A stretch of DNA of 64,000 nt, from assembly GCA_963702095.1 (NCBI GenBank), contig OY969706.1, positions 416,001-480,000 of the forward strand, in the 5' to 3' direction. The notes below the pieces were generated by a model, which was not told the DNA's origin, ran no database searches, and worked only from the letters and a program-made list of their open reading frames with translations. Position numbers and translations under genes: made by a program. This DNA comes from Candidatus Bathyarchaeota archaeon (GTDB lineage Archaea; Thermoproteota; Bathyarchaeia; Bathyarchaeales; Bathycorpusculaceae). Of this stretch, positions 14,849-58,450 are shown in pieces (the stretch's first letter is position 1; each line of letters begins with the position of its first letter).

Positions 14849-14972
14849 CTTTATCCAATTATATAACTGGGGGTTCGAGACTCAGAGGTCTAAAGTATGG
14901 GGGTTAGTTGTTTAAATTAGGTATTTGAATAGGGATTTTCTAAAAATTTCAGTTAATGGTTGGGCAACTGGG

Positions 14973-15176: not shown

Positions 15177-15296
15177 TTTTGGTCCTTATTTGGGTACATA
15201 ATGTTTGTTCACAAATGACCTTTTCCAGTTCATAAATTATGTACAAAAATTAGTAGTAAACACTTATTAGCACACACAACCTAATAAACACAAAAT

Positions 15297-34098: not shown

Positions 34099-34149
34099 AC
34101 CAATCTGTTTTTATCGCGCTTCAAACCATTTTCTGGGTATCTGATGCTT

Positions 34150-34377: not shown

Positions 34378-34379
34378 GC

Positions 34380-35471
34380 ATGTCGGAGAATCTCCGCTTC
34401 AGAAACCCAGAAGTTGCTTATAGTATTGCCCAAAAAATACGCGCAGTCGCACCCAAAACTGGGCAAATCAAAATCTGCCATGTCTGCGGAACCCACGAGT
34501 GGACGATAACTCATTTTGGATTACGCAGCCTTCTGCCCCCAAACGTTGAGGTGATTGCTGGACCAGGATGCCCCGTCTGCATTGTTCCCGCCGCAGAAGT
34601 CGATGAAGCCGTCTCTTTGGCGAAACAGGGTAAAGTACTAACATGCTTCGGCGACCTGTTGCGTGTGCCAGGCAGTGAATCCTCGCTTATAGACGCCAAA
34701 GCCGCCGGCGCAGACGTCCGAATCGTCTATGCACTTTCAGACGCGGTGGAAATGGCTAAAAAGGAACCGGAAAAAGACTTTGTGTTCCATGCTGTCGGCT
34801 TCGAAACCACTGCACCCATCACCGCGGTTGAGGCACTGGGCGATTTACCCAAAAACTTCAGTTTCCTTGTTTCTCACCGCCTGATTCCGCCTGCTATGGA
34901 GTTGCTTTTGGGCGTGGAGGGTTTGCAAATTGACGGGTTTATTGCGCCGGGGCACGTGAGCGCCATAATCGGCACCAAACCCTATGAATTATTCACCGAT
35001 GTCTACCGTATGCCCACTGTTGTTGCGGGGTTTGAACCCAATGACGTGTTAATGTCCATCTACTTGATTCTCAAACAATGCAGCGTCGGTGACGCTAAAC
35101 TGGAAAACGAGTACTCCAGAGTGGTTAATCCTGAGGGCAACAGAAAAGCCTTGGAGATGATGCGCCGAGCCTTCGATGTTGCTGATGGAAACTGGCGGGG
35201 CATCGGCAAGCTAGCCAACTCAGCCCTGCAGCTCAAGTCCTCCCTAGCAGATTATGATGCATGCAAAAAATATGGCCTCAAACCCCAAGAGGGCAAAGAC
35301 ATCCACACCGGCTGCCAATGCCACCAAGTCATAGTCGGCAAAATCAAACCCGATCAGTGCCCACTGTTCCTGTCCGCCTGCACCCCAGCTAAACCCGTGG
35401 GCGCCTGCATGGTTAGCAGCGAAGGCACCTGCCGGGTCTGGGCAAAAAACGCATCCGCAAATGCCCTCTAA
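34380..35471 (+). CDS. hypD: Hydrogenase maturation protein HypD
   Basis: CGTH, GPGCPVC, GFETT, PGHVS, GACMVS.EG.C. Confidence 0.97.
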   Translation: MSENLRFRNPEVAYSIAQKIRAVAPKTGQIKICHVCGTHEWTITHFGLRSLLPPNVEVIAGPGCPVCIVPAAEVDEAVSLAKQGKVLTCFGDLLRVPGSESSLIDAKAAGADVRIVYALSDAVEMAKKEPEKDFVFHAVGFETTAPITAVEALGDLPKNFSFLVSHRLIPPAMELLLGVEGLQIDGFIAPGHVSAIIGTKPYELFTDVYRMPTVVAGFEPNDVLMSIYLILKQCSVGDAKLENEYSRVVNPEGNRKALEMMRRAFDVADGNWRGIGKLANSALQLKSSLADYDACKKYGLKPQEGKDIHTGCQCHQVIVGKIKPDQCPLFLSACTPAKPVGACMVSSEGTCRVWAKNASANAL

Positions 35472-42455: not shown

Positions 42456-42980
42456 AACAAATTCTCCTCTTTAAACTCAGTCAGGGTTGGATATAGCTTG
42501 TTGTTGTGGTAGATAGGCAATTACAAACAGGTTCATGCCTACCTTTTTAAGCCAGATAGGAGCAGAGCTTGTTTTTTCTCCTTTTTCCTCAGCTCTTTTT
42601 CTCTTATAATCTGCTTGTGGTGTTCTAATCCTTCGATTTTCTCTTTTTTACTCTTATGCATACTAAGCACCAAAACACATCTATCGTAATTAGCGCGGAA
42701 CGATAAATATTGTAGCTTGAAAGATGCGAAGCCAAACGTTGGAGTTAAGGGCTGAAATTACCCTAAAAAATGCTTAGAAAACGATTTTTAGTGCAAATGG
42801 TGGGTTTTTTGGGTAAACTATAAAAGCGTAAAAGTAATCCAGAAACTGTACACCTCACGCGTTCGAATAGTTCCTTCGCAGGAACAACCACTCAGTCAGT
42901 TAAGAGTAAAATCTTAGTTGTGATACGGAAAGCCATATAAATTGCTTTTACGTGTTTGTTTGCGCATCGGAGATATAAAA

Positions 42981-43466
42981 ATGCCAAAATGGGGCTACTC
43001 AATAATCGAAGAAATGCTTAATCCAGAAAAAACAGCGAAAGCCAGTGGAAGAGAACTAAAGGTTTCCCACAAAGCCGCACGTGAAGTAGCAAAAGCTATC
43101 CGCGGCATGGACCTTGCCCCAGCCAAAGATTTCCTGCGCGACGTCGCCATCAAAAAGCGACCTGTCCCCTACACCAGATACATTAAGAAACTTGGCCACA
43201 AAGGCGGCATGGAGAATTGTGGCGTAGGTCGATACCCCATAAAAACTGCTGAAGCAGTCCTCCTTGTTTTGCAGGCTGCTCAGGCCAACGCAGAAAACAA
43301 GGGCTTAGACGTTGATCGCCTCCGAATCATGCACAGCGCCGCATATCAAGGTGTCAAACTTAAGCGTTACACCCCGCGAGCACACGGCAGAGCATCACCA
43401 AAATATGATATCATGACTCACATAGAAATCGTGCTCGAAGAGAAACCCACATCAGGAGAACAGTAA
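42981..43466 (+). CDS. rpl22: 50S ribosomal protein uL22
   Basis: GRYP.K, NAENKGLD, PRAHGRA. Confidence 0.97.
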   Translation: MPKWGYSIIEEMLNPEKTAKASGRELKVSHKAAREVAKAIRGMDLAPAKDFLRDVAIKKRPVPYTRYIKKLGHKGGMENCGVGRYPIKTAEAVLLVLQAAQANAENKGLDVDRLRIMHSAAYQGVKLKRYTPRAHGRASPKYDIMTHIEIVLEEKPTSGEQ

Positions 43467-44201
43467 ATGAGCATAGTAAAAAGGTTCATAACAGAATCAA
43501 TTAAACGCACAGAAATAGATGAGTTTTTACAGAGAAAACTTGAAAGAGCCGGATACGGCGGAGTCAACTTGTCCAAAACCCCGCTGGGCACCCACGTAGT
43601 CATCTACGCCATGCGCCCCGGCTTAGTTATCGGCAGAGGCGGAGAAACCATCAAAGAACTCGCCGCTTCTCTGGAACGCAACTTCAAAGTTTCCAATCCA
43701 CAGATTTCAGTTTCAGAAATTGAAGTCCCAGAATTCAACGCCCACGTCGTCGCAAACCGCGTTACCTCAGCATTAGAACGCGGTGTCCACTTCAGACGCG
43801 CAGGTTTCTGGGCACTCAACCAAGTTATGGAAGCAGGCGCACTCGGAGCTGAAATCGTTATCAGCGGCAAATTAACCACTGAACGCGCACGCTTCGAGAA
43901 ATTTAGGGCAGGTCACTTTCCCATCGTCGGCGAACCAGCCGCACGCGCCATGCGAACCGCCGAAGCACATGTCCAGCTTAAACCCGGCATGATCGGGGTC
44001 CGAGTGAAGCTTATGCCTGCAGACGCATTCTTCCCAGACAAAGTCACAATCATAGAACCTGAACCTGAAACCGAAGCAGCAGTCGTCGTAACCAGCGAAC
44101 CAACTCCCGCACCAACTCCAGCAGCACCAGCATCCGCACCTGAACCAGCCCAAGAAGCAGCACCTGAAACAGAAACTAAACCAGCGGAGGAGAAACAGTA
44201 A
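43467..44201 (+). CDS. rps3: 30S ribosomal protein uS3 with Pro/Ala/Glu C-terminal tail
   Basis: RPGLVIGRGG KH domain, ERG.HFRRAG. Confidence 0.97.
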   Translation: MSIVKRFITESIKRTEIDEFLQRKLERAGYGGVNLSKTPLGTHVVIYAMRPGLVIGRGGETIKELAASLERNFKVSNPQISVSEIEVPEFNAHVVANRVTSALERGVHFRRAGFWALNQVMEAGALGAEIVISGKLTTERARFEKFRAGHFPIVGEPAARAMRTAEAHVQLKPGMIGVRVKLMPADAFFPDKVTIIEPEPETEAAVVVTSEPTPAPTPAAPASAPEPAQEAAPETETKPAEEKQ

Positions 44202-44515
44202 TGCCAGTTATGCGTATCAAAGAAATCGCGGCCCTATCAGAGGAAGCACGTGAACAGCGCCTGATCGATTTCCGTACTGAGCTTGCACGCATTAGAACCA
44301 TGGTTAACGCAGGCGGCGCCGTAGAAAACCCTACCCGCATCCGCCAACTGCGCAAGACCATCGCTCAAATCCTCACCATTGAGAATGAACAGAAACTTGG
44401 GCTCCGCAAGGCTCCTGTAGCTGAAAAGAAAGAGGAAAAACCCGCTAAGAAAGCTAAGCCCAAAAAAGAGGTTAAAGAAACAACAGAAGAACCTGAGGAG
44501 AAAGCTTCCCAATGA
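44201..44515 (+). CDS. rpl29: 50S ribosomal protein uL29 with Lys/Glu tail
   Basis: GGAVENP.RIR.LRKTIA.ILT. Confidence 0.95.
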   Translation: MPVMRIKEIAALSEEAREQRLIDFRTELARIRTMVNAGGAVENPTRIRQLRKTIAQILTIENEQKLGLRKAPVAEKKEEKPAKKAKPKKEVKETTEEPEEKASQ

Positions 44516-44793
44516 AAGTAACTCCAGACATTATCCGTTATGAATTCATCGGAGCAAAAGGATTAGTCGCCCAAAGCCCCAACCCAAACCTGATGGGTGT
44601 AGGCGGCTTAGTTGTAGGTGAAACCCGCAACACCTTCACTTTCCAAGGCGAAGGCAGAACACGCAGCGTCATAAAGGAAGCTGCAACATTCGATTTTACC
44701 TTCGACGACGGCGCAGTCGTTGAGATTGATGGTAAACTACTGGTCGCCAGCTCAGAAGACCGGCTTAAGAAAAGCGTAAAGAGGTTATGGTAA
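44512..44793 (+). CDS. rnp1: Ribonuclease P protein component 1 (Rpp29)
   Basis: EFIG, G.VV.ETRNT, EIDG..L....EDRLK; canonical operon position. Confidence 0.92.
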   Translation: MKVTPDIIRYEFIGAKGLVAQSPNPNLMGVGGLVVGETRNTFTFQGEGRTRSVIKEAATFDFTFDDGAVVEIDGKLLVASSEDRLKKSVKRLW

Positions 44794-44794
44794 T

Positions 44795-45115
44795 ATGTCA
44801 ATGAGTTTCAAGCAACCAAAAAAGACCTGTGACGACAAAAACTGTCCCTTCCACGGATCCCTCCCAATTCGAGGTCGAGTACTAGAAGGCGTAGTTCACA
44901 CAGCCAAGATGGACAAAACCGTTATCGTTGACCGAGAATTCATGCAGTTCTCATCAAAATTCGTCCGATATGAACGCAGACACGGACACATCCCATCACA
45001 CAATCCACCATGTTTAGACGTTAAAGAAGGCGACCGCGTTAAAATCGCTGAGTGTAGACCACTGAGCAAAACGGTTTCCTTCGTAGTTGTTGAAAAAGTA
45101 GGAGAAGAGAAGTAA
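44795..45115 (+). CDS. rps17: 30S ribosomal protein uS17
   Basis: CPFHG, ECRPLSKT. Confidence 0.97.
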   Translation: MSMSFKQPKKTCDDKNCPFHGSLPIRGRVLEGVVHTAKMDKTVIVDREFMQFSSKFVRYERRHGHIPSHNPPCLDVKEGDRVKIAECRPLSKTVSFVVVEKVGEEK

Positions 45116-45116
45116 A

Positions 45117-45560
45117 ATGTGTGCAGCGAAAGCAAAACAGAGAGCATTAACCGCAAAAGGCATGCTATCACACGGACAAAAAATCAGCCGTGGCTTACTT
45201 GCAGGCTCAGAAATGAAATGCGCAGACAACACCGGCGCACGTGTCCTACGCTTAATACAAGCCATGGGCTACAAGGGCAGACTAAGACGTTACCCATCCG
45301 CCACAGTCGGCGACAAAGTCACCGTCTCCGTCCGCCAAGGCTCACCGGACATGCGTAAAAAAATGTTCCAGGCAATCATTGTCCGCCAAAGAAAAACGTA
45401 CCGCCGCATCGACGGCGTCTGGATTCAATTTGAAGATAACGCAGCAGTCATCATTACTCCAGAAGGCGAAATGAAAGGCTCAGAAATCCGTGGCCCCGTA
45501 GCCAGAGAAGCAGCTGAAAGATGGCCAAGAATCGCAAGCGCCTCAAGCATAATAGTGTAG
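45117..45560 (+). CDS. rpl14: 50S ribosomal protein uL14
   Basis: CADNTGA, FEDNAAV, GPVAREAAERWP. Confidence 0.98.
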   Translation: MCAAKAKQRALTAKGMLSHGQKISRGLLAGSEMKCADNTGARVLRLIQAMGYKGRLRRYPSATVGDKVTVSVRQGSPDMRKKMFQAIIVRQRKTYRRIDGVWIQFEDNAAVIITPEGEMKGSEIRGPVAREAAERWPRIASASSIIV

Positions 45561-45573
45561 GAGAATAAAGATA

Positions 45574-46176
45574 ATGCAGAAATCAGTAAAAGACCCCAGT
45601 AAACAAAGAAAAAGGCTTTTCAACGCCCCAGCCCACATACGCCACAAAATGATGGCTGCGCCGCTCTCAAGTGAACTTCAAGCTTCAAGAGGCGCAAAAA
45701 CCCTGCCCGTCCGCAGAGGCGACACCGTTCGCATCTTACGCGGCGACAACAAGGGTTTCGAAGGCAAAGTTTCACGTGTCGACCTCAAAGCCTACCGAAT
45801 CTACATGGAAGGCTTAACACGTGAAAAAGTCGACGGAACCAACATTTTCTTGGCAGTTCACCCATCCAAAGTCCAAATACGCAACCTAAACCTCGACGAC
45901 AAATACCGCAAAGACACCATCATTGGACGCAAACAAGCGCCCGCGAAAAAAGAGAACAAAAAGCCGAAAGCTCAGCCAGCCAAAGCTGCAAAGGCTCCAA
46001 CCAAGAAAAAGGCTAAGGTTGAAGAAGAACCAGAAATCGAAGAAGAAGCGGCGCCTGAAGAAGTTGAAGAAGAGAAAGCACCAGCCGAAAATGAAGCCGC
46101 CGAAAAAGAAACAGAGGAAGAAGAAGCCGCACCTAAAAAGCGCGCTGAGAAAGCCTCTGCAAAAGGAGGAGAATAA
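45574..46176 (+). CDS. rpl24: 50S ribosomal protein uL24 with long charged tail
   Basis: KQRK, GD.V...RG, HPSKV. Confidence 0.96.
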   Translation: MQKSVKDPSKQRKRLFNAPAHIRHKMMAAPLSSELQASRGAKTLPVRRGDTVRILRGDNKGFEGKVSRVDLKAYRIYMEGLTREKVDGTNIFLAVHPSKVQIRNLNLDDKYRKDTIIGRKQAPAKKENKKPKAQPAKAAKAPTKKKAKVEEEPEIEEEAAPEEVEEEKAPAENEAAEKETEEEEAAPKKRAEKASAKGGE

Positions 46177-46178
46177 GT

Positions 46179-46943
46179 TTGGGTAAAAAAGGAAAGACCG
46201 CACGTTTGAAACGTAAGCCAGCACCAGCATTCTGGCAGATTCACAGAAAAGAATTACCTTGGGTAGTTAAGCCTTCATCAGGTTCACATTCACTACACAA
46301 ATGTCTACCCTTAACCTTGGTTTTACGTGACATGCTAGGTGTAGCTCAAACAAGAAAAGAAGGCAAAATCGTCATTGCGCAAGGCAAAGTGATAGTCAAC
46401 GGGAAAGTCTACAGAAAAGACGATATCCCAGTTGGCTTAATGGATGTCATTGCTTTACCTGACAGCGGCAAATACTACAGAGTTATGCCTTCACACAAAG
46501 GACTCATTGTAGCTCCAATAAGCAAAGAAGAATCCAACACCTCTTTGCTGCGAGTCGAAAGCAAAACCACAGTATCTAACGGAGTACAAATTGCCGTTCA
46601 CGACGGCTCAGTTATGCTAGTCAAAGTTGCGGACCCAAAGAAACCCACAGAAGTCACCTACGACACATTCGACGTTCTCAAAGTCACCTATCCAGATAAA
46701 ACCGTAACACAAACCCTCAAAACCAAAGAGGGCACTCTTGCATTAATTACAGGCGGCAAAAACATTGGCAAAATGGGCAAAATCGTAGAAATCGAAAAAA
46801 CAGAAGCCAAGAAACGCCGCCAAGCCCTCGTCGTCATCGAAGACGCCCAAGGCCAACGTTACCAAACAATCCTTGACTTTATCTTCAGCATAGGTGAAAC
46901 TGCACCATTGATCAACACTTTGGAGGCATTAACAGTTGAGTGA
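46179..46943 (+). CDS. rps4e: 30S ribosomal protein eS4
   Basis: LKR..AP..W.I.RK, PVGLMDV, TGGKNIG. Confidence 0.97.
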   Translation: MGKKGKTARLKRKPAPAFWQIHRKELPWVVKPSSGSHSLHKCLPLTLVLRDMLGVAQTRKEGKIVIAQGKVIVNGKVYRKDDIPVGLMDVIALPDSGKYYRVMPSHKGLIVAPISKEESNTSLLRVESKTTVSNGVQIAVHDGSVMLVKVADPKKPTEVTYDTFDVLKVTYPDKTVTQTLKTKEGTLALITGGKNIGKMGKIVEIEKTEAKKRRQALVVIEDAQGQRYQTILDFIFSIGETAPLINTLEALTVE

Positions 46944-47478
46944 AGAAGAAGCAATGATTAAGACTTGGGAAGAGTGCCCGATGCTTAAACCACGCATCGA
47001 AAAAGTCGTGGTTAACCTCAACGTCGGCAAATCAGGTGAACCCCTAGAAAAAGCCAACAGAGTCCTCGAAGAAATCACCGGACGCACCCCAGTTAAACGA
47101 AAAGCCAAAAGCACCATCCGCGACTTCGGCATACGTGAAGGCGAATCCATCGCAGTTGTCGTAACCCTGCGCAAACAAGAAGCACTTGCCTTCCTAAAGA
47201 AAGTCATGCCAGTCATCGATAACAAAGTCGCTAAACGCGCTTTTGATGTCCGCGGAAACTTTAGCTTCGGACTCAAAGAACACATCGACATCCCAGGCGT
47301 CAAATATGACCCAGAAATCGGCATATTCGGCATGGACATCTGCGTTACCGTTAACCGTCCAGGTCAACGCATCAAAATCCGCAAACGCCAAAGCCAACCA
47401 ATCGGTCCCAAGCACGTGTTAACACCTGAAGAATCAATTCTCTTCATAAAACAAACGTTAGGAGTAGAAATCGTCTAA
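46936..47478 (+). CDS. rpl5: 50S ribosomal protein uL5
   Basis: KVVVN..VG, GNFSFG..EHID.PG.KYDP.IGI.GMD. Confidence 0.98.
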
Positions 47479-47494
47479 AACAGAGAGTGAATGT

Positions 47495-47659
47495 ATGGGA
47501 AAACAGCAAGTCAAGAAAGAACGAAAATACGGCAAAGGCGCACGTCCATGTGTAAGATGCGGTTCTTACGGTCCCGTTATCAGACGTTACAATTTATATT
47601 TATGTAGGACATGTTTTAGAGAGGCTGCTCCAAAATTGGGTTTCAAAAAATATGAGTAG
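47495..47659 (+). CDS. rps14: 30S ribosomal protein uS14 (zinc-binding; not in the ORF track)
   Basis: Manual translation [54 protein letters not shown]. Confidence 0.96.
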
Positions 47660-47674
47660 GAGCTAAGAAAGAAA

Positions 47675-48058
47675 ATGGACACTTTAACAAACGGTCTCAT
47701 AACCATCATAAACAACGAAACACGCAACAAACGTGAATGCATCATTAGCCCTGCCTCTAAACTTTTGGGGCGCGTCCTACGCATCATGCAACTTAACGGT
47801 TACATAGGCGAATTCGAATTCATCGATGATGGACGTCAAGGAAAATTCAAAGTCCAACTCCTCGGCAGAATCAACAAGTGTGGCCCAGTTAAACCACGCT
47901 TTGCCGTAAAATCCACGGAGTACGAGGACTGGGAAAAGAAATTCCTCCCCTCCAGAGACGTCGGCATCATGGTTGTATCCACATCTAAAGGCGTCATCGC
48001 CCACAAGGATGCAGAACAAAAGAACATCGGAGGAAGGCTCTTAGCCTTCGTGTATTAG
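47675..48058 (+). CDS. rps8: 30S ribosomal protein uS8
   Basis: GYIGEFEFIDDGR, INKCG, GGRLLAFVY. Confidence 0.98.
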   Translation: MDTLTNGLITIINNETRNKRECIISPASKLLGRVLRIMQLNGYIGEFEFIDDGRQGKFKVQLLGRINKCGPVKPRFAVKSTEYEDWEKKFLPSRDVGIMVVSTSKGVIAHKDAEQKNIGGRLLAFVY

Positions 48059-48070
48059 GAGAAGAAACTT

Positions 48071-48616
48071 ATGCGGCTTCCAGAAGTATCAAGAACCATC
48101 GAAGTTCCAGACGACGTAACCCTCAGTGTAGTTGACAAAAAAGTCAGCGTTAAAGGTGCCAAAGGAAACCTTACCCGCGACTTCTCCTATGCAACAGTAG
48201 CCATAGAAGGCGAAGGCAAAAACGTCCGCATATTCGCCAAGTGGCCACGCAAAAAGGAAACCGCCCTCGTAGGAACCATCTACTCACACATCAACAACAT
48301 GATCACAGGCGTAACCAAAGGCTACTCCTACAAGCTGAAAATCGTCTTCTCACACTTCCCCATATCTGTGAAACTCCAAGGCAAATCCGTCCTCATCGAA
48401 AACTTTACAGGAGAACGCAGACCACGCCGAGTTGACATTCTAGGCGAAGTCAAAGTCAAAATCGAACCAGAAGACATCATCATCCAAGGCACAAACCTTG
48501 AAGAAGTCAGCCAAACCGCCGCCAACATCGAACAGTCCACAAAGGTACGGGGAAAAGACCCACGCGTCTTCCTAGACGGCATCTACATTTATGAACGAAA
48601 CGAAGGAATGGCATAA
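48071..48616 (+). CDS. rpl6: 50S ribosomal protein uL6
   Basis: NMITGV..G, SHFPI, DPRVF.DGIY. Confidence 0.98.
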   Translation: MRLPEVSRTIEVPDDVTLSVVDKKVSVKGAKGNLTRDFSYATVAIEGEGKNVRIFAKWPRKKETALVGTIYSHINNMITGVTKGYSYKLKIVFSHFPISVKLQGKSVLIENFTGERRPRRVDILGEVKVKIEPEDIIIQGTNLEEVSQTAANIEQSTKVRGKDPRVFLDGIYIYERNEGMA

Positions 48617-49257
48617 TGAGCGAAAAGAAAATTTCACCCTCACGCAAAGAACTCCGCCTAAGGGAACGCGCTAGAAACAAGAAGCCCAAGTTTGTACGGG
48701 CGGAAAGCTGGAAATACGACCGCTTCAGCTTAAGCTGGCGCCGACCACGCGGACTCGACAACAAGATCCGCCGAAAAATCCTCGGTTGGCCTCCAGGACC
48801 AAGCATGGGTTACAAGGGCCCTAAAGTTGCCCGCGGCGTTCACCCATCAGGTTACCGTGAAGTTATCGTTTACAACGTAGCAGACCTATCTGGCGTAGAC
48901 ATCAACACTCAAGCAGTCCGCATCGCCCACACAGTCGGTAAACGCAAACGCGCAGACATCATTGCCAAAGCCAAAGAACTCAACCTTAAAATCCTAAACA
49001 TCAAAGTCTCCGCTGAAGCCGAAGCAGTAGAAACTGAAGAGAAAGAAGAAGCAGAGGAAACCGAAGAAACAACCGAAGAAGAATCCGCTGAAGAGAAAAA
49101 GGAAGCCAAGGTCGAAAAGAAGAAGCCTAAGCCTAAAGCAAAGAAAGAAGAGGCAAAACCCAAAGCAAAAAAGCCCAAAGAAAAAGCCAAGGCTGCACCC
49201 AAAAAGAAAGAAACTAAATCGAAAACTAAACCCAAGAAAGGAGACAAAAAGCAATGA
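48616..49257 (+). CDS. rpl32e: 50S ribosomal protein eL32 with acidic-then-basic tail
   Basis: WRRPRG.DNK, RG.HPSG. Confidence 0.96.
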   Translation: MSEKKISPSRKELRLRERARNKKPKFVRAESWKYDRFSLSWRRPRGLDNKIRRKILGWPPGPSMGYKGPKVARGVHPSGYREVIVYNVADLSGVDINTQAVRIAHTVGKRKRADIIAKAKELNLKILNIKVSAEAEAVETEEKEEAEETEETTEEESAEEKKEAKVEKKKPKPKAKKEEAKPKAKKPKEKAKAAPKKKETKSKTKPKKGDKKQ

Positions 49258-49709
49258 CTGACTTAAGTGGACAAAGACGGCTCGCGGCTCAAATTCTCAA
49301 AATCGGTCAGAACCGAGTTTGGATTAACCCCGCACGCATGGACGACGTGGACGGAGCAATTACACGTGAAGAAATCCGCAAGCTGATCCACGAGAAAATC
49401 ATCGTTTCATTACCCGAGAAAGGCGTAAGCCGCTCTAGGGCAAAAACCATCCGAGCAAAGAAACGCCTAGGTCGCCGCCGAGGAATGGGCAGCGTTACCG
49501 GCGCAGGCTACGCAAAAGTCACTCAGAAAGACGCTTGGATGCTAAAAATCCGTTCGTTGCGGCGTAAACTCCGCGCGCTCAAAGCCAGCCGAGTGATAGC
49601 TGAAACCACCTATACCCAGTACTATAGGATGGCGGGCAGTGGACGATTCGATTCTATCGCAGAGTTAGAACGCAACTTAAAAGAGCATGACTTATGGAGG
49701 AAACGTTAA
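49254..49709 (+). CDS. rpl19e: 50S ribosomal protein eL19
   Basis: QRRLAA.IL..G..RVWI.P, AITREEIRKLI. Confidence 0.97.
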   Translation: MTDLSGQRRLAAQILKIGQNRVWINPARMDDVDGAITREEIRKLIHEKIIVSLPEKGVSRSRAKTIRAKKRLGRRRGMGSVTGAGYAKVTQKDAWMLKIRSLRRKLRALKASRVIAETTYTQYYRMAGSGRFDSIAELERNLKEHDLWRKR

Positions 49710-50801
49710 GTGGCAAAGAGTAGCAATTACCGCGTACAACTACGTCGAAGACGCGAAGGAAAAACCGATTACCAAGCACGCAAGGCACTTGTCATTTCTG
49801 GCAGGCCCCGCTTAGTCGCTCGAACCTCATTACGGAACTCAACCGCACAGATCATCATTGCAAAACCCATAGGCGACCAAGTTTTAGCCGCAGCCAACAG
49901 CCGTGAACTCATCAAGAAATATGGTTGGAAAGCACCAACCGGCAACCTCCCAGCAGCCTACCTTACCGGTTTGCTCTGTGGACTCAAAGCCAAAGCAGCA
50001 GGCATAGACGCAGCCATCCTCGACTTAGGATTAATTAACCCAACCAAAGGCGCCAAAGTCTTCGCTGTCCTTCACGGTGTAATCGACGCAGGTGTAGAGG
50101 TACCGCATGGCGAGGGAAAAATCGTTGAATACCGCTCTAAAGGCGACCACATTGTAGGCTACGCTAATGAGTTAAGCAGCGAAGACCCTGAAGCTTATGA
50201 GGCAAAATTCTCAAAGTACACTGCTGAAGGGGTTGAACCTGAAAAGGTCGCTGAACACTTCAGCAAGGTTCGCTTGGCAATCGTCGGTTCCTTCAAAGGT
50301 GCTCAAGTTGCTCCTGAACCCGAAAGTGCACCACAAGCCAAAGCAAAACCTAAGGCAGCACCAAAACCTGAAGGCAAGCCTGCTCCAAAACATGAAGTTA
50401 AACCCGCCGCTCCTAAAGCTGAAGTTAAAGCTGTAGAAGCACCAAAAGCTGAAGCCAAGGTGGAGGTGCCAAAGGTAGAAATTAAAGTTGCGCCGAAAGC
50501 CGAAGTTAAAGCTCCCAAAGAAGAAGCCAAGCCCGAAGTAAAAGCAGTTAAAGAAAAGGCGCATGCAGAGGAGAAAGCTCCAAAAGCCAAAGCCGCAGAA
50601 GCCAAGGCTGCTCATGCCAAAGCGGCTCCTGAAGAAAAAGCAGAGAAAGCCGAAAAGGCTCCGGTGAAAGGTAAAGCTGCAAAAGCAAAAGCTCCTGCTA
50701 AAGGAAAAGCATCAAAAGAAAAAGCTGCCTCCAAAGGAAAGGCGCCGGCAAAAGAGAAAGCACCAGCTAAAAAAGCTGCTGCAAAGAAGGGTGGAAAGTA
50801 A
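49710..50801 (+). CDS. rpl18: 50S ribosomal protein uL18 with approx. 165-aa Lys/Ala/Pro/Glu tail
   Basis: RRRREGKTDY, GN.PAAYLTG, ILDLGL. Confidence 0.96.
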   Translation: MAKSSNYRVQLRRRREGKTDYQARKALVISGRPRLVARTSLRNSTAQIIIAKPIGDQVLAAANSRELIKKYGWKAPTGNLPAAYLTGLLCGLKAKAAGIDAAILDLGLINPTKGAKVFAVLHGVIDAGVEVPHGEGKIVEYRSKGDHIVGYANELSSEDPEAYEAKFSKYTAEGVEPEKVAEHFSKVRLAIVGSFKGAQVAPEPESAPQAKAKPKAAPKPEGKPAPKHEVKPAAPKAEVKAVEAPKAEAKVEVPKVEIKVAPKAEVKAPKEEAKPEVKAVKEKAHAEEKAPKAKAAEAKAAHAKAAPEEKAEKAEKAPVKGKAAKAKAPAKGKASKEKAASKGKAPAKEKAPAKKAAAKKGGK

Positions 50802-50803
50802 GA

Positions 50804-51475
50804 ATGAGTCGAAGAAGTCAACCAAGAGATAGAAGTCGAGACAGCGAACGACGTGCAGCAAGCCTAGAACAGTGGGTACCAAGAACCCGCTTGGGCAAAA
50901 TGATTCAAGAAGGCAAAATCACAACCATTGAAGACCTATTCCTATCAGGGATAAAAATCAGTGAATCCCAAATCGTCGACTCGCTAATCCCAGACCTGCA
51001 AGAAGAAGTCATAAACGTTAACCTTGTACAGAAACAAACCGACGCCGGCGAAAAAAGCCGCTTCAAAGCCATAGTCGCCGTAGGCAACAGAGACGGCTAC
51101 GTCGGATTAGGCCAAGGTAAAGCCAGCCAAGTCCGCAACGCCATCGAAAAAGCAGCAGCCAACGCACGCCTCAACATCATCCCAGTTAAACGGGGATGCG
51201 GAAGTTGGGAATGCGGCTGCGGTAAACCCCACAGCGTACCCTTCCAAGTGGAGGGCAAATGCGGCGGCGTCCGAGTCGTCATCGTTCCCGGTCCAAGAGG
51301 CTTAGGCTTGGTTTCCAGCGAAGTCGCCAAAGTCATCTTGGGGTTAGCAGGCGTTAAAGACCTCTGGATGAGAAGCTACGGCTCAACCCGAACCGTCCCA
51401 TCCTATGCCTGCGCAATCTTTGACGGATTAACCAAAACCTACAACTTAATCACAACAACCGATTGGGTGAAGTAA
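50804..51475 (+). CDS. rps5: 30S ribosomal protein uS5
   Basis: WVPRTRLG, RGCGSWEC, PGPRGLGL. Confidence 0.98.
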   Translation: MSRRSQPRDRSRDSERRAASLEQWVPRTRLGKMIQEGKITTIEDLFLSGIKISESQIVDSLIPDLQEEVINVNLVQKQTDAGEKSRFKAIVAVGNRDGYVGLGQGKASQVRNAIEKAAANARLNIIPVKRGCGSWECGCGKPHSVPFQVEGKCGGVRVVIVPGPRGLGLVSSEVAKVILGLAGVKDLWMRSYGSTRTVPSYACAIFDGLTKTYNLITTTDWVK

Positions 51476-51476
51476 A

Positions 51477-51962
51477 TTGGCACAACAAATAGAAGAATGC
51501 AAATGCTTCGTAGTTGTCAGAATCCGCGGAACCATCAGTGCAGTGCGAGAAGCCCGTGAAACCCTAGAGCTCCTACGCTTAAGCCACACTAACCACGCAA
51601 TACTCATCGACAGCCGACCCGCCTACAAAGGCATGCTGCAACGCGTAAACAACTATGTAACCTGGGGCGAACCCACCAAAGAAACCGTCTTAGCAATGTT
51701 GCAGAAACGCGGCAGATACTTAGGCGACAAAAAACTCGCTGAAAACATAGAAAAAACAGGCTACAAAACCATCGATGAACTCGCAGACGCCATCGTCAAC
51801 TGCAAAGTTGCATACAAAAACCTGCCAGACATCGAAGCACGCTTTAAACTGCATCCGCCAAGCAAAGGTTACAAGGGTCAAATCAAGAACTCTTTCCGTG
51901 CAGGCGGCGAAGCAGGCTACCGCGGCGAAGCCATCAACGAACTCGTCAAACGCATGGTTTAA
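51477..51962 (+). CDS. rpl30: 50S ribosomal protein uL30
   Basis: VVRIRG, VTWGE, LHPP.KG, GYRG..IN.L..RM. Confidence 0.97.
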   Translation: MAQQIEECKCFVVVRIRGTISAVREARETLELLRLSHTNHAILIDSRPAYKGMLQRVNNYVTWGEPTKETVLAMLQKRGRYLGDKKLAENIEKTGYKTIDELADAIVNCKVAYKNLPDIEARFKLHPPSKGYKGQIKNSFRAGGEAGYRGEAINELVKRMV

Positions 51963-52180
51963 GCCTGCGTTTATATTTTTACTATTTTTATTTTCTTGTG
52001 GTATTTCCATTTCACGCATTTTGGTTAAATCTTACTTTGTCTTCAGTAAAATTGTTAGCTTGGATTCTTTATGACTAAGGCAACAACCTCATTGCGGTCC
52101 ATCTCGGAAGAAATACAAAAGATGAGCGCTATACTAGATAAGCTTGTAAATGCTTACATAGAAAAACAGGGTTAACCTGG

Positions 52181-52873
52181 CTAGTTTAGGTCATCGAAGG
52201 TTTCTTTGATTAGGCGTCGGGTTCTCCAGGAAACTTGGGCTTCCGCAATGTATGTTTTGGGTTGATTCTTGCTTAGCATGCTGCCCAAGTTTTTCTTTGT
52301 CACGTATGCGGCTACGGCTTGTCGTGGGTGATAAATGAAAGTGAAGTAGGACGCTCCTGAACCCACTAGGAATCCGCTTGCCCACAGAGGCGCTACAAAG
52401 AAGAAGAAGTAGAAGTTCCAAACGTCTACCGCTCCTATCAACGGCACCATCACCGGCGGCGGATAAGTCATGTTTGTCCAGTAGAAGCATCCCAACATAA
52501 AGTCTAGGGTGTTGAAGCCTAATCCCGTCATGATTATGGCAACGAAGAACGCCGCTATCAAGATAAAGAGGTGTTTTCTGGTTTTTTTAACCGAAAAGAA
52601 CGCAGCCATGGCCAATCCTGTTGCTAACCCGCCTATTGCCAGCGTCGCCAATCCGAAGATGCTGTAGGCGTATTTGGCTTCCATAACTACGTAGTTGTTC
52701 ATGTGCCAGAGGAACGAGGATTCTTCGTTAAACCACGGTGAACCAATCATTAATCCGATGTAAACACTGTCGACTAGTAGTATAGCGCCAATAACTAATG
52801 TTATAGTTAAGCAGGTAGCTATGCGTCCCCTCAACTGAATTTCTCTCCCTTCCTCAACATCTCCTAGCTTCAT
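52181..52873 (-). CDS. Four-TM hypothetical membrane protein
   Basis: Hydrophobic ORF. Confidence 0.75.
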   Translation of the reverse strand: MKLGDVEEGREIQLRGRIATCLTITLVIGAILLVDSVYIGLMIGSPWFNEESSFLWHMNNYVVMEAKYAYSIFGLATLAIGGLATGLAMAAFFSVKKTRKHLFILIAAFFVAIIMTGLGFNTLDFMLGCFYWTNMTYPPPVMVPLIGAVDVWNFYFFFFVAPLWASGFLVGSGASYFTFIYHPRQAVAAYVTKKNLGSMLSKNQPKTYIAEAQVSWRTRRLIKETFDDLN

Positions 52874-53034
52874 CCCTGTTAAATATTATCACGAGACAGC
52901 GCTCTAAACTCCCCGAATACGTGGTCAGATGCATGATTGTCCAAACCTGCATTGTAAGGCAACAAATTATGTCAATATCTAATGCAACAACCGTTAAATA
53001 ATACCTTGAAATAAAGGTGCGAAAAGGTGTAGCT

Positions 53035-53340
53035 ATGCAGAAGTGGGCAGATTACCTCATCAGTGGCGTTAAATCAGCCACTGGCTCGAACTGCATACAA
53101 TACGTAGAGGTACACAGCGACTTCGGTTGCATAGTTTGCGAAACCAGTGTTGTCTCCCGCGCCGACGTTATTTCCAACATTAAAAAGGGCACCAGCTACG
53201 TTACGGTCTTCAAAACAACCATGGGCAAATGGCGCAGAGGAGAAGACGTCCGCGTTGTAACCGTCAATGGGCAAGAGTATCTCCGTACAGACGCTAAACC
53301 CGTTGCCTCAGACAACTTCGATGATGTCCCCGAACTCTGA
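53035..53340 (+). CDS. DUF3892-like protein
   Basis: WADY.IS.V, R..V...I..G, V.VNG..YLRTD.....DN....P. Confidence 0.8.
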   Translation: MQKWADYLISGVKSATGSNCIQYVEVHSDFGCIVCETSVVSRADVISNIKKGTSYVTVFKTTMGKWRRGEDVRVVTVNGQEYLRTDAKPVASDNFDDVPEL

Positions 53341-53411
53341 TATAGGCAATTACGTTTTCGAAATACTGATTTAAAAAGGAAGCTGCGTTCTTCTCGCCGA
53401 GGATAGGTTGC

Positions 53412-53630
53412 ATGAAGCGAGCATCTGCTCTTAAAACTCCAAAAAGTACCACGGAAATTCGGGCGCTTCTAAAAAGCGTTAACATGGATTTCGAATCAGT
53501 CGTTAACAAGGCATTAAACGATTATCTGTCCAAAATCTTCATCAGCTGCCCCTTCACTGACGAGTTATGCATACACCGGAAGCAATGCATAGGCTGCACT
53601 TCATTCGACAAAGAGATAATCATCAAATAG
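53412..53630 (+). CDS. Small protein, ribbon-helix-helix-like N-part with a Cys cluster
   Basis: VVNKAL..YL, CPF...C....C..C. Confidence 0.6.
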   Translation: MKRASALKTPKSTTEIRALLKSVNMDFESVVNKALNDYLSKIFISCPFTDELCIHRKQCIGCTSFDKEIIIK

Positions 53631-53729
53631 GGTTAGCCCAAATATTTCGTTAACTCGAAAAGTAGGGCTAGGGCACACCGTAGTACTGGATTAACTCGCG
53701 AGTCTACAACAAGCGTAACTATCGGAAAC

Positions 53730-54008
53730 ATGTTAAGCGTGTATGCTTCGGTGGCAGACTGGATTCCGTTGAATCCTAATGTCCAAGTTGATGGCAACTC
53801 TGTTGGAACCGCCCCTATTTCTGTTCCAGTGACTTCAGGCAGCCATACAGTAACCATCGATGACCTTACACAAGACTCATTGGTTCCTGGCTACTATGAC
53901 TCCTTTAGCTGTTTCATTGACAACAATAACAACTACTACTACAATGGCCAATCAATACCAATCACTTCTCCCAAAACATTATATGCATACTATAACTGGG
54001 GATATTAA
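53730..54008 (+). CDS. PEGA-like domain fragment
   Basis: V.VDG..VGTAP....V..GSHTVTI; looks like an orphan C-terminal piece. Confidence 0.5.
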   Translation: MLSVYASVADWIPLNPNVQVDGNSVGTAPISVPVTSGSHTVTIDDLTQDSLVPGYYDSFSCFIDNNNNYYYNGQSIPITSPKTLYAYYNWGY

Positions 54009-54068
54009 AAGTGCAATCGGTAGGCACCTAATCCCTTTTCTTATCCTAAAAAATTAGTTTGAGCTAGT

Positions 54069-55375
54069 TTGAGAAAGCTTTTAATTGTTAATAACTCAAA
54101 ATGGAAAGCAATGAACTCGAGCTTGATGCATATGAAGTTATCCCAGATAAAACCATATTCCTGGTTTAACCTCACGACAAAAACCTTTGCCTTAACTATA
54201 ATGCTCGTATGCCTTACGGTTTTAGGTATCATTTGTTCCCCGCCAGTTAAGGCCCAAACACCCAACGCAATCACCATTAATGCTAATGGAACTGTGACTC
54301 CTTCAGCAGCGCCGATTGAGCAAATGGGTAACGCCTATACTTTGACAAGTGATTTTGTCGGAAGTATAACGGTAAACAGGAGCAACGTGATAATCGACGG
54401 AAAAAATTACGCTCTGTCCGGTGGTCTCTTAGTTAGGGGTGTTTCGAACATAACCGTTGAAGGATTTGTTGTTACAAATGGTGTGGCGTTTGTGTCTAAC
54501 GAGGTTGACGGTATTTTGTTAGACCATGCATCTCAAGTTAGGGTTACTAATAACACAATCTCGGGTATATGGAGTATTCAACAGATGAACGGTGTAGGGT
54601 TTAGTGCAATTGACGTCTGGATGGGGGATTCAAACGTTATTATGGGAAACAATTTACTGAATAACGCTTACGGCATATATTTTTCAAAAACCCAGAACAA
54701 CTTGATCGCAGACAACACTTTCGTAAGCAGTATGATTAACTTTTGGGATTCCTCAAATAACACTATTTACCACAATAATTTCGTGGCCTCGTGTGGTATC
54801 CTGGCTTCTGATGGAGACTATGAAAACCCCAACTCTGTTAACGTATGGGACAACGGCTATCCTAGTGGAGGCAACTACTGGGCTGACTACGCGAATTACG
54901 GCGCTAGAGAACTAGACTTATCGGGGATAGGCGACAAACACTACGTTATTGACACAAAAAATTCTGATCAATATCCCCTCATGAAATCATTCAACGCTAC
55001 GTTTTTTGCGTTGCAGACCACCCCGCCGAAAATAACCATACAACACCAATTAACGAAACATACCAGAACTCAACTGTACCTTTGATTTTTACAGTAGACG
55101 TTGTCTCCCAAGTAAAACTTGTTAACTGGACAGGCTACAGCATAGATGGACAGCGAAACGTTACCGCAACAGGAAACGTCGTTTTAACTCAGCTCCCAAG
55201 CGGCGCACACAGCATCACAGTCTATGCCAATGACACTTACGGCAACATGGGTGCTTCAGAAACGGTGGCTTTCAGTACTTCCGAACCTTATCCTGGGCAG
55301 CTCGCTTTAATTTCAGCGGTGATTGTAGCAGTTGCGGTTGTTGCTGTGGTTGTTTTCTTTAAGAGACGTCGATAA
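54069..55375 (+). CDS. NosD-like beta-helix surface protein with Ig-like domain and C-terminal TM (frameshift near 55040)
   Basis: GNAYTLTSD, IYHNNF, GGNYW, D.YPLM; continues in ORF 55082-55375 (GYSIDG, TVYANDT.GN.G.S). Confidence 0.8.
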
Positions 55376-55483
55376 CCCGTTTGTTTATTTTTAATTGCCT
55401 TTTTGTGGTCAAATTCTTTTAAAGGATTTTTACTTTTTTTGCCCACTTAGGGTAAGATATGCCTGGAACCTGCTGACTGGACC

Positions 55484-55731
55484 ATGCTAGTGCCCGCTGT
55501 ATTGCGCTCTTCATTGCCGTTCACTGTAACGCTAAGAAAGCAAATGATGCATGCTTTCACATCCACACCGCGGCGGTTTCAACATGGAGCCATGTAGGGC
55601 GTGTTGAGAAAAACACCGTTGCCACACCGAAACAGATGCTGAGAAATGCTGCAGCCGCAAAAAGCAACCGCCTTCACTTGCCGTCTTGTGGCACCCCACA
55701 AACCGCCACGCCCACATAAAGAGAAAAAAGC
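55484..55731 (+). repeat. Dispersed intergenic repeat family A, copy 5 (longest)
   Basis: Contains all the blocks seen separately in copies 1, 2 and 4. Confidence 0.88.
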
Positions 55732-56273
55732 AAAAGTTGCGCAGAGCAACAAAATTCTCGTATGTTAGAAAAAGGAGGGAGAGGAAAAGGGTCGGTCTTT
55801 TTTCTCCCTCGATGATAGCAATGTTCTCAATGCTATTGCGGTAAATTGGATCATGTTTTGCATACGATTTTTTGATGCTTAACCTGCGATTTTTGACTCT
55901 TTTCCTCAATTAAATAATTGCATAACGATAGGATATAAAATTTACTCGAATCCACGTTTAATGATCGAAAAATATCCGATACTCATAATTTAACTTAGCA
56001 GAAGCCCAAGAAATGCAGTGATGCTTGTTCTTCCCCGCTTATCTTGGTTAAAATCGCTACTTTTACCATCAAACTGCACTCTGCTGTTCAGGTATTTTCT
56101 AACCCTTTATGTGCGATACGTTTTATAATGTCATCAGAGAGATGCGTAGTTAATCTGGAGGGGGAAAGAAGACGAGTGCAAGATGGAGAAGAACAAACAA
56201 AAATCGTAAATGGCTAGACCTAAAAGAACTAAAGTCAACTCCGAAACAGAGGGCTAACACCAAGAATAAGGCC

Positions 56274-56606
56274 ATGCCTACACCACCCAATTTCCGTACA
56301 TCCAAAAGCTACACCAAACGCAGCAGCGAACCCAAACCATTAATCGACATGTTCCAAGACACCCACAACATCACCATCATCGCTGAGATAGCGGGCTTCA
56401 GCAAGGACTCCCTCAAAATCAACGTAAAAGACCAGAAAATCACGCTATCTGCCAAATCAAAAGAGCGCCGTTACTATAAAAGTTTAAATTTACCGAAGGT
56501 AGTGATTCCTGACGAAACGCACACCAAATACAAGAACGGTGTGCTCGAAATTAAACTTAAAAAAGCTGAATCACCAGCGAAAGAAGCGGATCAACATGCC
56601 CCATAA
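56274..56606 (+). CDS. Small heat-shock protein (Hsp20/alpha-crystallin)
   Basis: PLID.F, IIAE..G..K, YKNGVLEI.LKK. Confidence 0.9.
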   Translation: MPTPPNFRTSKSYTKRSSEPKPLIDMFQDTHNITIIAEIAGFSKDSLKINVKDQKITLSAKSKERRYYKSLNLPKVVIPDETHTKYKNGVLEIKLKKAESPAKEADQHAP

Positions 56607-57006
56607 GCTTAGAAAAATCAGGAAATTCAGAGGCTCAAGAACAGTAGGTTACGGAAGAATCGGGCAGCACCGAGACAGCGGAAGCAAAGGTAACCGCAAA
56701 GTCGGACGCCACAAACATCTCTGGAGCAAAGTCGTTACCTCAGACCCCAACTACTTCGGAAAAAGTGGATTCACGTCTCCGCAAAGCAAACACCGAATCG
56801 AATCCACTATTAACCTATCCAAACTCGACCAACTCGCCGCCGGATCAGAAATCAACCTTACTGAACTTGGATACACTAAACTCCTCGGCACAGGCAAATT
56901 AACCAAAGCCTTAACTGTTCAAGTCGAGGCAGCCTCAAAGTCCGCCGCCACAAAAGTTCAAGAAGCAGGCGGCAAACTCATAACCCCTCAAGCTACCGAG
57001 GAGTAA
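56596..57006 (+). CDS. rpl15: 50S ribosomal protein uL15
   Basis: RK.RGSRT.G.GR.GQHR, YFGK.GF, KLLG.G, A..KV..AGG. Confidence 0.96.
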   Translation: MPHKLRKIRKFRGSRTVGYGRIGQHRDSGSKGNRKVGRHKHLWSKVVTSDPNYFGKSGFTSPQSKHRIESTINLSKLDQLAAGSEINLTELGYTKLLGTGKLTKALTVQVEAASKSAATKVQEAGGKLITPQATEE

Positions 57007-57015
57007 CGCGTTTAG

Positions 57016-58450
57016 ATGCCCGGAAGATTCCTCAGCCTCTTTAAACCCATAGGTCGAGTGCTACCTGAAATCAAGAAGCCAGAACGTAAGGTTTCTTTTA
57101 ACGAAAAAATCTTCTGGACCGCGCTAGTACCTAGTTATCTTTTTGGTTATGACTGAAATTCCGCTCTTCGGCGTGAGCACAAGCGCCCAAGACAACTTCG
57201 GTCAACTCAGAGTTATCTTTGCTTCAAACCGTGGCACGTTGATGGAGCTCGGTATCGGGCCCATTGTCACGGCAGGATTAATTCTCCAGTTACTCGCTGG
57301 TTCCAACATCATCAAATGTGATATGTCTAACCCTGAAGACAGAGGTCTCTTTACCTCCGCTAGCAAAGTCTTCAGCATCGTCCTCACCGCTATCCAAGCG
57401 GGCGCCTACATCTTAAGCGGTATGTACGGCACACTGGCTGAACTCGGCGGAGGAACGATCATTGTCATATTCCTGCAATTGCTATCAGCAGGCATAATCG
57501 TCATGTTAATGGATGAATTGGTTCAGAAGGGCTGGGGACTAGGCAGCGGCATCAGCCTCTTCATCATGGCAGGCGTCGCCCAGAGCATCCTCTGGTCTAT
57601 GTTTTCACCGCCAACAGGCTTATTCCTCGGTACTCTCCAGCAATACCTCGGCGGCGGCTTAACCACCATAGAATACGTGTTCGGAACTGCCTCAGGCATC
57701 TACCCATCAGTGTTAGGCTTAGCTGCTACCATCACAGTGTTCCTCATAGTCATCTACCTGCAGGGCGTTAGAGTCGAGTTGCCAATGAGCTACGCAGGCT
57801 ACAAAGGCTTCCGCAGCAGATACCCCATCAAGCTCCTCTACGTCAGCAACTTACCCGTCATCTTTGCCAGTGCACTCTTCGCTAACGTGTACTTCTTTAC
57901 GCAGTTGCTGTGGAGCCAACTTGGGCAGCCTGCGCCTGGCACGAATTTGTTCTTCCAAATAATAGGTGACTACAACCAAACAGTCTCAAGCACAGGACAA
58001 GTAAGCGTCCAGCCTGTCGGCGGCATAGCATACCTAGTCACTGCACCGCATAACATACAAAACGTCATCGCAGAGCCGCTTAGAGCAGCAGCGTACCTTG
58101 GCATCATCGTGGCTTTCTGCGCCGTGTTCAGCCTCATATGGCTCGAAGTCGGCGGCTTAGGCCCCAACAAAGTTGCAAAACAACTCATGGACAGCGGCAT
58201 GCAAATCCCCGGCTACAGACGCAGCGAACGCCCCATCGAAGCAATCCTCAAACGCTACATCCCAGTCGTTACAGTCTTAGGCGGCATATTCGTTGGGCTA
58301 CTCGCGGGACTTAGCGACTTCCTAGGAGCATTCGGCACAGGCACCGGTATCCTGCTGTCAGTAGGCATCATATACCAGTACTACGAGTTGCTGATGCGTG
58401 AACGCGCCGCAGAAATGTTCCCAGCATTCAGAAGGATACTAGGCGAATAA
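57016..58450 (+). CDS. secY: Preprotein translocase SecY/Sec61-alpha (apparent +1 frameshift near 57130)
   Basis: MPGRFL...LPEI.KPERKVSF.EK..WT, then GTLMELGIGPIVTA, G.GSGISLFI, YPIKLLY.SN.P, MQIPG.R. Confidence 0.96.

Follow-up and report, generated by a model that had tools for sequence, protein, structure and literature searches.

The 64,000-nucleotide (nt) stretch of a Candidatus Bathyarchaeota archaeon analysed here, referred to below as the window, contains an archaeal spc-type ribosomal protein operon, five of whose products, uS3, uL29, uL24, eL32 and uL18, extend beyond their conserved cores in long, charged C-terminal tails (Table 1). The genes of the operon follow in the order uL22, uS3, uL29, Rpp29, uS17, uL14, uL24, eS4, uL5, uS14, uS8, uL6, eL32, eL19, uL18, uS5 and uL30, and Pfam identified all 17 of them, 16 as ribosomal proteins and the remaining one, Rpp29, as a subunit of RNase P. 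Adjacent genes abut or share a 4 nt overlap. The host genome is a single contig of 2.94 Mb with 46.8% G+C, and the spc-type order was also recovered in 57 relatives' loci. In the five tailed proteins Pfam finds ribosomal domains only, all above cut-offs: S3_C (84.8 bits) and KH_2 (58.3) in uS3, L29 (51.4) in uL29, L26 (94.4) and KOW (33.3) in uL24, L32e (131.7) in eL32 and L5e (103.4) in uL18.

Table 1. Window coordinates of the operon, of the five tailed genes and of the Shine-Dalgarno-like sites in their last codons (ORFs, open reading frames; aa, amino acids).
Feature	Position	Strand	Details
Ribosomal protein operon, archaeal spc-type	42942..51962	+	ORFs and Pfam matches above curated cut-offs
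uS3 gene	43467..44201	+	244 aa; tail residues 198-244 (47 aa), nt 44058-44198
uL29 gene	44201..44515	+	104 aa; tail residues 67-104 (38 aa), nt 44399-44512
uL24 gene	45574..46176	+	200 aa; tail residues 119-200 (82 aa), nt 45928-46173
eL32 gene	48616..49257	+	213 aa; tail residues 131-213 (83 aa), nt 49006-49254
uL18 gene	49710..50801	+	363 aa; tail residues 194-363 (170 aa), nt 50289-50798
uS3 last ~7 codons	44178..44198	+	GGAGGAG, Shine-Dalgarno-like site of uL29
uL29 last codons	44489..44512	+	GAGGAG, upstream of the Rpp29 start at 44512
uL24 last codons (…KGGE)	46153..46173	+	AAGGAGGAG, Shine-Dalgarno-like site of eS4
eL32 last codons (…KGDKKQ)	49231..49254	+	AAGGAGA, upstream of the eL19 start at 49254
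uL18 last codons (…KKGGK)	50778..50798	+	GGGTGGA, upstream of the uS5 start at 50804

Tail length was taken as the number of residues past the conserved core, measured against orthologues in the relatives' loci. Summed over the five proteins, the tails comprise 420 residues with 108 K or R and a net charge of +20, or about 15% of the residues encoded by the operon's 16 ribosomal protein genes (from ORF lengths), and all 12 remaining operon proteins show 0 extra C-terminal residues. K, E and A together account for 66-75% of the uL29, uL24, eL32 and uL18 tails; the uS3 tail differs in being built of P, A and E (23, 23 and 21%) with 13% T, and is acidic throughout (net -8). The lysine share falls from 34% in eL32 through 29% in uL29, 27% in uL18 and 22% in uL24 to 4% in uS3. 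The uL29 tail is lysine-rich with an acidic end (net +3; charge by thirds +2, +4, -3), the uL24 tail has thirds of +10, -10 and -3, and that of eL32 consists of an acidic block followed by a basic one (-13, +6, +12). The uL18 tail is basic (net +23), with 27% K, 29% A, 14% E and 12% P. An earlier reading of the window, made from the DNA letters alone (hereafter the sequence-only reading), had estimated the tails at 48, 38, 80, 80 and 165 aa, close to the lengths in Table 1. Its description of them as charge-patterned, and of their neighbours as normal in length with genes still abutting tightly, is likewise borne out, and its term 'polyampholyte brush' is a fair physical description of the five tails. 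Its count of five proteins is right for the operon and too low as a total, since uS2 and eL31 of the same genome are also extended (see below).

The ends of the cores are confirmed by solved archaeal homologues. Solved archaeal uL18 chains measure 174-205 aa and are matched by the window protein over its residues 1-199 (phmmer); those of uL24 measure 118-128 aa, of uL29 65-71 aa, of eL32 123-161 aa, with Haloarcula forms of 234-241 aa that carry an N-terminal extension, and of uS3 186-229 aa, plus one of 318 aa. An AlphaFold2 model of uL18, based on a 36-row alignment, gave predicted local distance difference test (pLDDT) scores of 72-95 in the core and 41-54 in the tail, with no helix or strand after residue 194. 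The uL18 tail is accordingly predicted to be disordered, as the sequence-only reading had held for all five.

Segments of this kind are rare in the genome. Among 3704 non-overlapping ORFs, a charged K/E/A/P segment of at least 30 aa, a criterion tuned to the five tails, was found in only 29, four of them inside the operon, and the 170-aa segment of uL18 is the longest of all. According to Pfam, run on the other 25 ORFs, the segment-bearing ribosomal proteins outside the operon are uS2, eL31, eS25 and the stalk protein aP1, which brings the ribosomal proteins to 8 of the 29; the 21 non-ribosomal ones include CdvA, SepF, NuoB, an FKBP and ThrRS. The tails of the operon are thus more than a chance occurrence. 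Ribosomal proteins are strongly over-represented in this set, yet the habit also extends to other proteins. In the CdvA-like protein (546 aa; G000:C1:1115441-1117081, plus strand; L019) the C-terminal part is long, charged and rich in proline (extensin-like), and SepF carries a charged linker.

Two of the ribosomal proteins encoded elsewhere are extended at the other end. uS2 (G000:C1:345720-347384, minus strand; L015) has an acidic N-terminal extension of about 65 aa, and eL31 (G000:C1:505791-506261, plus strand; L018) one of about 60 aa, acidic and then basic, which indicates that charged extensions are limited neither to C-termini nor to the operon. Altogether the genome has at least seven ribosomal proteins with non-canonical extensions, besides the usual aP1 hinge and eS25 N-terminus. 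The uS2 frame, an ORF of 554 aa, also encodes a K/R-rich linker and, after it, a Memo-like (AmmeMemoRadiSam B) domain, and represents either a true fusion or a missing stop.

An origin of the tails in misassembly, frameshift or read-through has next to no probability. Frameshift-like tails or broken genes, which would speak for it, are found in a few relatives (L043, L044 and L048; L040 contains Ns). In the window, however, all five tails stay in frame up to conserved ends, near-identical long forms are present on independent contigs, and at least 20 relatives agree. One independent metagenome contig encodes a uL18 of 359 aa that is 98% identical to the window protein, and most uL18 homologues among the 120 matches listed are 280-419 aa long. 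In other sequencing runs, contigs of relatives cross the tails of uL24 and eL32 and differ there in length by a net amount that keeps the frame; those from RNA libraries do so with changes of 21 nt, from 78 to 66, and of 12 nt, and fit the tail picture, while proving neither transcription nor translation, as DNA carry-over is possible and contigs carry no information on the level of expression. In the 8 public runs listed, at most 0.11 of the sampled words were present, and the four examined hold relatives 90-95% alike rather than the window strain. Coverage of the uL18 tail region (50004-50765), at most 0.26 per bin at 90% likeness or more, says nothing either way. Taken together, the in-frame tails, the independent contigs and the agreeing relatives refute an artefact for the window. 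In L043, L044 and L048 (relatives G016, G004 and G021) several tails look frameshifted and have ends rich in R, N, S, T and Q; these oddities may be assembly errors in low-complexity repeats or true frameshifts.

We compared the operon in 37 relatives and 20 more distant genomes (57 loci), setting aside rows that were broken or frameshift-like (uS3 of L040, because of Ns; uL24 and uL18 of L043; uS3 of L044; eL32, eL19 and uL18 of L048). The uS3, uL29, uL24 and eL32 tails are present in every row of the genus and in all rows of the family (Table 2). The C-termini of the 12 other operon proteins are unchanged, with 0 extra residues in almost every row of the genus and mostly within ±6 in the remaining loci. 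In a phylum sample of 251 genomes with a uL24 core, the uL24 open frames among the rows listed measure 196-255 aa in the genus, 180-321 aa in the family, 136-222 aa in the order and mostly 122-181 aa elsewhere. Among the operon loci sampled across the phylum, acidic uS3 tails of 18-58 aa are the baseline. The sequence-only reading had named absence of the tails from close relatives as a finding that would count against it. Such absence was found for uL18, in six of the 23 genus rows, and for none of the four other tails.

Table 2. Length of the five tails (residues past the conserved core) in the loci compared, by relationship to the window genome.
Group	Loci	uS3	uL29	uL24	eL32	uL18
Genus	23	45-92 (21 rows)	26-48 (22 rows)	44-176 (21 rows)	46-83 (22 rows)	51-180 (17 rows), 8-9 (6 rows)
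Other genera of the family	7	26-103	10-32	55-127	40-72	6-10 (4 rows), 59 (1 row)
Other families of the order	14	18-126	2-9	14-95	6-60	6-46
Other orders of the class	8	18-58	0-15	2-41	3-29	1-19
Other classes	5	25, 53	3, 5	3-41	4-6	4-8

A tree of the concatenated cores (38 rows; IQ-TREE quick search, LG+G4) recovered the genus with a support of 100. Five species without a uL18 tail were placed at its base, and the sixth tail-less species, L046, was nested among uL18-tailed ones. Across these loci, the tails have grown stepwise: those of the other classes are short, the order and the family have longer ones, and the genus has the longest. The tail of uL18 was the last to be added and is the most labile, some species having lost it or never acquired it.

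The tails have repeat structure and conserved ends. Tandem Repeats Finder and a repeat search detected weak tandem repeats of 27 and 15 nt in the eL32 tail, and in the uL18 tail an internal periodicity of 24-33 nt with five copies of an APKAEVKA-like unit. Among the perfect, recent repeats seen in relatives are five copies of PKKEKA in eL32 and four to five of AAKKP in uL24. These perfect and weak short repeats suggest that short purine-rich units coding for K, E, A and P were duplicated in frame, or slipped, again and again as the tails grew. No near-identical DNA module common to different tails was detected, the cross-gene matches being only 18-51 nt long at 60-86% identity; these are as weak as expected from common composition, and an exchange of cassettes between tails was rejected. 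Behind the variable stretch, the genus conserves the ends …EGGQ or …GGE in uL24, …KKGGKKA in uL18, …GEKKQ in eL32 and …EETKE or …EEKQ in uS3. Short uL18 forms end in SFKGEKKE and long ones in SFKG…KKGGKKA, which indicates that a low-complexity stretch was inserted ahead of the old C-terminus.

The reason for this conservation lies in the operon itself, as the Shine-Dalgarno-like site of each following gene is embedded in the final ~7 codons of the tailed gene before it. The five sites in the window's tail ends lie 11-17 nt before the following start (Table 1). Of the 112 tailed genes of the genus, 105 have a Shine-Dalgarno-like word in their last 24 nt, whereas among 727 internal windows of 24 nt the share is 21%; strict 5-mers occur in 85 of 98, against 9% of internal windows. 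The claim of the sequence-only reading that the tails are not products of stop-codon loss is thereby settled, since the ancestral last codons, with their Shine-Dalgarno site, were kept downstream of the inserted stretch. The slot open to growth would be the solvent-exposed C-terminus between the folded core and these last ~7 codons, which would not be free to change because they carry the Shine-Dalgarno site of the next, translationally coupled gene.

Persistence of the end motifs behind hypervariable linkers throughout the genus might also be expected if each tail worked like the P-stalk, with a variable linker presenting a conserved C-terminal peptide (…GGQ, …KKGGKKA, …GEKKQ, …EETKE) to a partner, and the genome's canonical stalk protein aP1 shares this overall design. 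We regard such a tether as very improbable. The frequency of Shine-Dalgarno sites (105 of 112 against 21%) explains the conservation without any function of the peptide, and the hydrophobic, factor-binding …GLGALFG end of aP1 is absent from the five tails, whose ends are charged or glycine-rich. The terminal peptide as a functional motif was accordingly rejected, the embedded Shine-Dalgarno site accounting for it.

Substitution rates differ between tails and cores. The ratio of nonsynonymous to synonymous rates (dN/dS; Nei-Gojobori) was computed for seven close pairs. In the tails its median was 0.27, and of 34 comparisons 32 gave values below 1; the other two concerned short uL29 tails with a synonymous divergence (dS) of about 0.05. 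In the cores the median was 0.08 over 35 comparisons. Charge blocks are kept over the genus: the eL32 tail is acidic first and basic second in 20 of the 23 genus-level rows (the window and 22 relatives), and the uS3 tail is net negative in 21 of 22. On these comparisons the tails appear to evolve under purifying selection on composition and charge blocks that is relaxed but not neutral.

A nearly neutral ratchet, in which functionless repeat expansions are tolerated at exposed ends provided that the proteins stay soluble and harmless, is a possibility to be taken seriously, although we doubt it. It would account for the extreme spread of lengths within the genus (8-180 in uL18, 44-176 in uL24), for the loss or absence of the uL18 tail in some rows and for the repeat structure. 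The permissive slot between the core and the Shine-Dalgarno-bearing end fully explains the position of the tails; nonsynonymous change is about three times faster in tails than in cores, and similar segments occur in 21 non-ribosomal proteins of the genome. It fits poorly, however, with dN/dS below 1 in nearly all comparisons, with the retention of charge blocks, with the presence of all tails but that of uL18 throughout the rows of genus and family, and with the cost of some 420 extra residues (~15%) in very abundant proteins, an argument that follows Ntountoumi et al. (2019). The sequence-only reading had also allowed that such tails might prove to be already known as common and neutral: published accounts do describe them as common (PMC6821194; PMC9534751), though not as neutral.

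We consider it very probable that the five extensions are real and translated low-complexity segments, intrinsically disordered and characteristic of a single lineage of Bathyarchaeia, which grew by repeat expansion and likely serve as charged arms. Most likely the ribosome would retain them as flexible arms on its solvent side, in which lysine-rich blocks may form non-specific RNA-binding or charge-neutralising arms and acidic blocks may act as built-in counter-charges that keep proteins and ribosomes soluble.

Several points weigh against this interpretation. Translation of the tails and their retention in mature ribosomes are predictions from sequence, and the arm function, although the most likely one, is deduced from composition. 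The uL18 tail, missing from six of the 23 genus rows including the nested L046, is dispensable, and the net charge of single tails is only loosely conserved (-5 to +28 in uL24, -24 to +10 in eL32). The uS3 tail fell short of the genome-scan criterion, even though that criterion had been tuned to the tails. A single-sequence model of uL24 left its tail without secondary structure, but was poor overall (mean pLDDT 55) and thus uninformative. Finally, the dN/dS of the tails is biased downward, as alignment inflates identity in low-complexity sequence and only aligned codons are counted, and the pairs are not independent, since they share species (L049 was used twice).

The specific roles put forward in the sequence-only reading, namely a brush for nascent-chain chaperoning (uL24 and uL29), ribosome condensates or nucleoid tethering, we consider improbable. 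Ribosome anatomy favours such roles, since uL24 and uL29 surround the exit of the tunnel and uS3 lies where the mRNA enters; the largest tail, however, belongs to uL18, which is located away from the exit, on the central protuberance, and some species do without this tail. The chaperone usual at the archaeal exit site, NAC, was found in all four genomes checked, so that a missing exit-site chaperone was rejected as the cause of the tails. The blocky charge patterns are in keeping with a brush, as is the K/A/P-rich uL18 tail (net +23), which resembles the K/A-type low-complexity regions suggested to bind nucleic acids (PMC6821194). None of the tests run supported these roles.

Alternatively, the tails might compensate for an altered ribosomal RNA (rRNA), with expansion segments or losses, or for a missing factor. 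The precedent is eukaryotic: there, expansion segments of the rRNA grew along with extensions of the proteins (PMC11764897). Here, by contrast, the 23S rRNA measures 3027 nt in three complete genomes of the genus (G000, G003 and G014), whose uL18 tails measure 170, 9 and 97 aa. In a tail-poor genome from another family it measures 3065 nt, and NAC is present in all four. Compensation thus appears extremely improbable, its rejection applying to 23S length only.

The charged-arm interpretation leaves room for joint action of the tails. Across 21 related species of the genus, uL24 and uL18 tail lengths are negatively related in phylogenetically independent contrasts (r = -0.47, p = 0.03), a trade-off that was spotted after tabulation and is, being post hoc, a lead and not a result. 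Contrasts were of opposite sign in 14 of 20 cases, and the raw correlation reaches r = -0.73 without the basal clade lacking a uL18 tail. Outside that clade, the 16 complete rows, one of them the window, have a summed K+R of 74-112 over the five tails, against a variation of up to about 20-fold in single tails. It is conceivable, if unlikely, that the tails act jointly and that the amount of basic tail per ribosome is held near a set-point, the growth of one tail being offset by the shrinkage of another. If this were true, the ribosome surface would be a regulated polyelectrolyte layer, and the archaeal tails would parallel the growth of eukaryotic extensions, but without rRNA expansion.

Other features of the window lie outside the tailed genes. 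The usual continuation of the operon, uL15 (56539-57006) and SecY (57143-58450), is found about 4.5 kb downstream of uL30. The intervening 51963-56538 contains an ORF of 230 aa without Pfam match (52181-52873, minus strand), a DUF3892 protein, a NosD-like beta-helix protein (54069-55085) and Hsp20 (56274-56606), and looks like an insertion that splits the operon before uL15 and SecY. Further upstream, at 13979-16000, an integrase-core fragment (rve_3, 13979-14272) adjoins small family-less ORFs in a region of low G+C (0.41, against about 0.47-0.50), which may be the remnant of a mobile element. A hydrogenase maturation cluster with HypF (775 aa), HypC and HypD lies at 31771-35471.

In practice, quality filters based on length and alignments of marker genes should allow for the tails when applied to Bathyarchaeia, and annotation pipelines should not call them fusions or errors. 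A free-living archaeal lineage with some 420 added disordered residues, and more on uS2 and eL31, is a natural experiment that opens questions on the evolution of the ribosome surface, the origin of low-complexity sequence under operon constraints and a collective electrostatic role.

The closest published parallel is the survey of Ntountoumi et al. (2019; NAR; PMC6821194), based on one proteome per genus from 2017. Low-complexity regions are described there as frequent in prokaryotic ribosomal proteins and dominated by A, E and K, with S3, S24, L10 and L12 as recurrent archaeal carriers and an average archaeal region of 36 aa. A class with at least 30% lysine is suggested to bind nucleic acids, and the regions are argued, from their cost, to matter. 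The Bathyarchaeia tails share with these regions the terminal, A/E/K-dominated stretches on abundant ribosomal proteins, and archaeal S3 is common to both. The bacterial L21 and L22 of its supplement carry K/A/P-rich segments that resemble the uL18 tail, the AxPKAxK-type repeats of L21 being classed as a DNA/RNA-binding K/A type. By contrast, uL18, uL24, eL32 and uL29 are not named in the sections consulted, and the tails of 82, 83 and 170 aa exceed the average of 36. One supplementary table has no entries for 'Bathyarchae' or 'L18', although the paper's ribosomal protein table may list further archaeal cases.

In Mycoplasma pneumoniae, 11 of 52 ribosomal proteins have N- or C-terminal extensions, mostly predicted to be disordered; the authors find extensions of this sort to be common among bacteria, for the most part with no known function (Xue et al., 2022; Nature; PMC9534751). 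The likeness lies in many extended, mostly disordered ribosomal proteins within one organism. The present case differs in concerning an archaeon rather than a bacterium, in genome size (2.9 Mb, against the reduced genome of the mycoplasma) and in the proteins extended, and within the order it is the larger genomes that have the longest tails. Mosquito RpS6 and RpL23a carry H1-like lysine-rich tails (reviewed in PMC11764897, 2025), which like those described here are long, basic, K/A/P-rich, of low complexity and independently added. Unlike them, the archaeal tails set acidic blocks beside basic ones, and that of uS3 is purely acidic. None of the five proteins matched a linker-histone or H1-like Pfam family at E ≤ 0.001, so that the likeness is one of composition only.

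Among solved structures, the tails match nothing (phmmer), and no homology to eukaryotic extensions was found among those chains: eukaryotic uL24 matches end at query residues 110-142, and those of uL18 at or before residue 207. The solved 318-aa archaeal uS3 (9o17 chain AC) does have a long C-terminal tail past S3_C, as here, but concerns uS3 alone. We found no specific description of tails in Bathyarchaeia, or on archaeal uL18 or uL24, in a literature search in which subscription journals were thinly covered. Since low-complexity K/A/E extensions of ribosomal proteins are already in print (PMC6821194; PMC9534751), we judge the five Bathyarchaeia tails to be a rather extreme further case of a general phenomenon, whose value lies in the detailed evolutionary picture they provide rather than in a new kind of biology.

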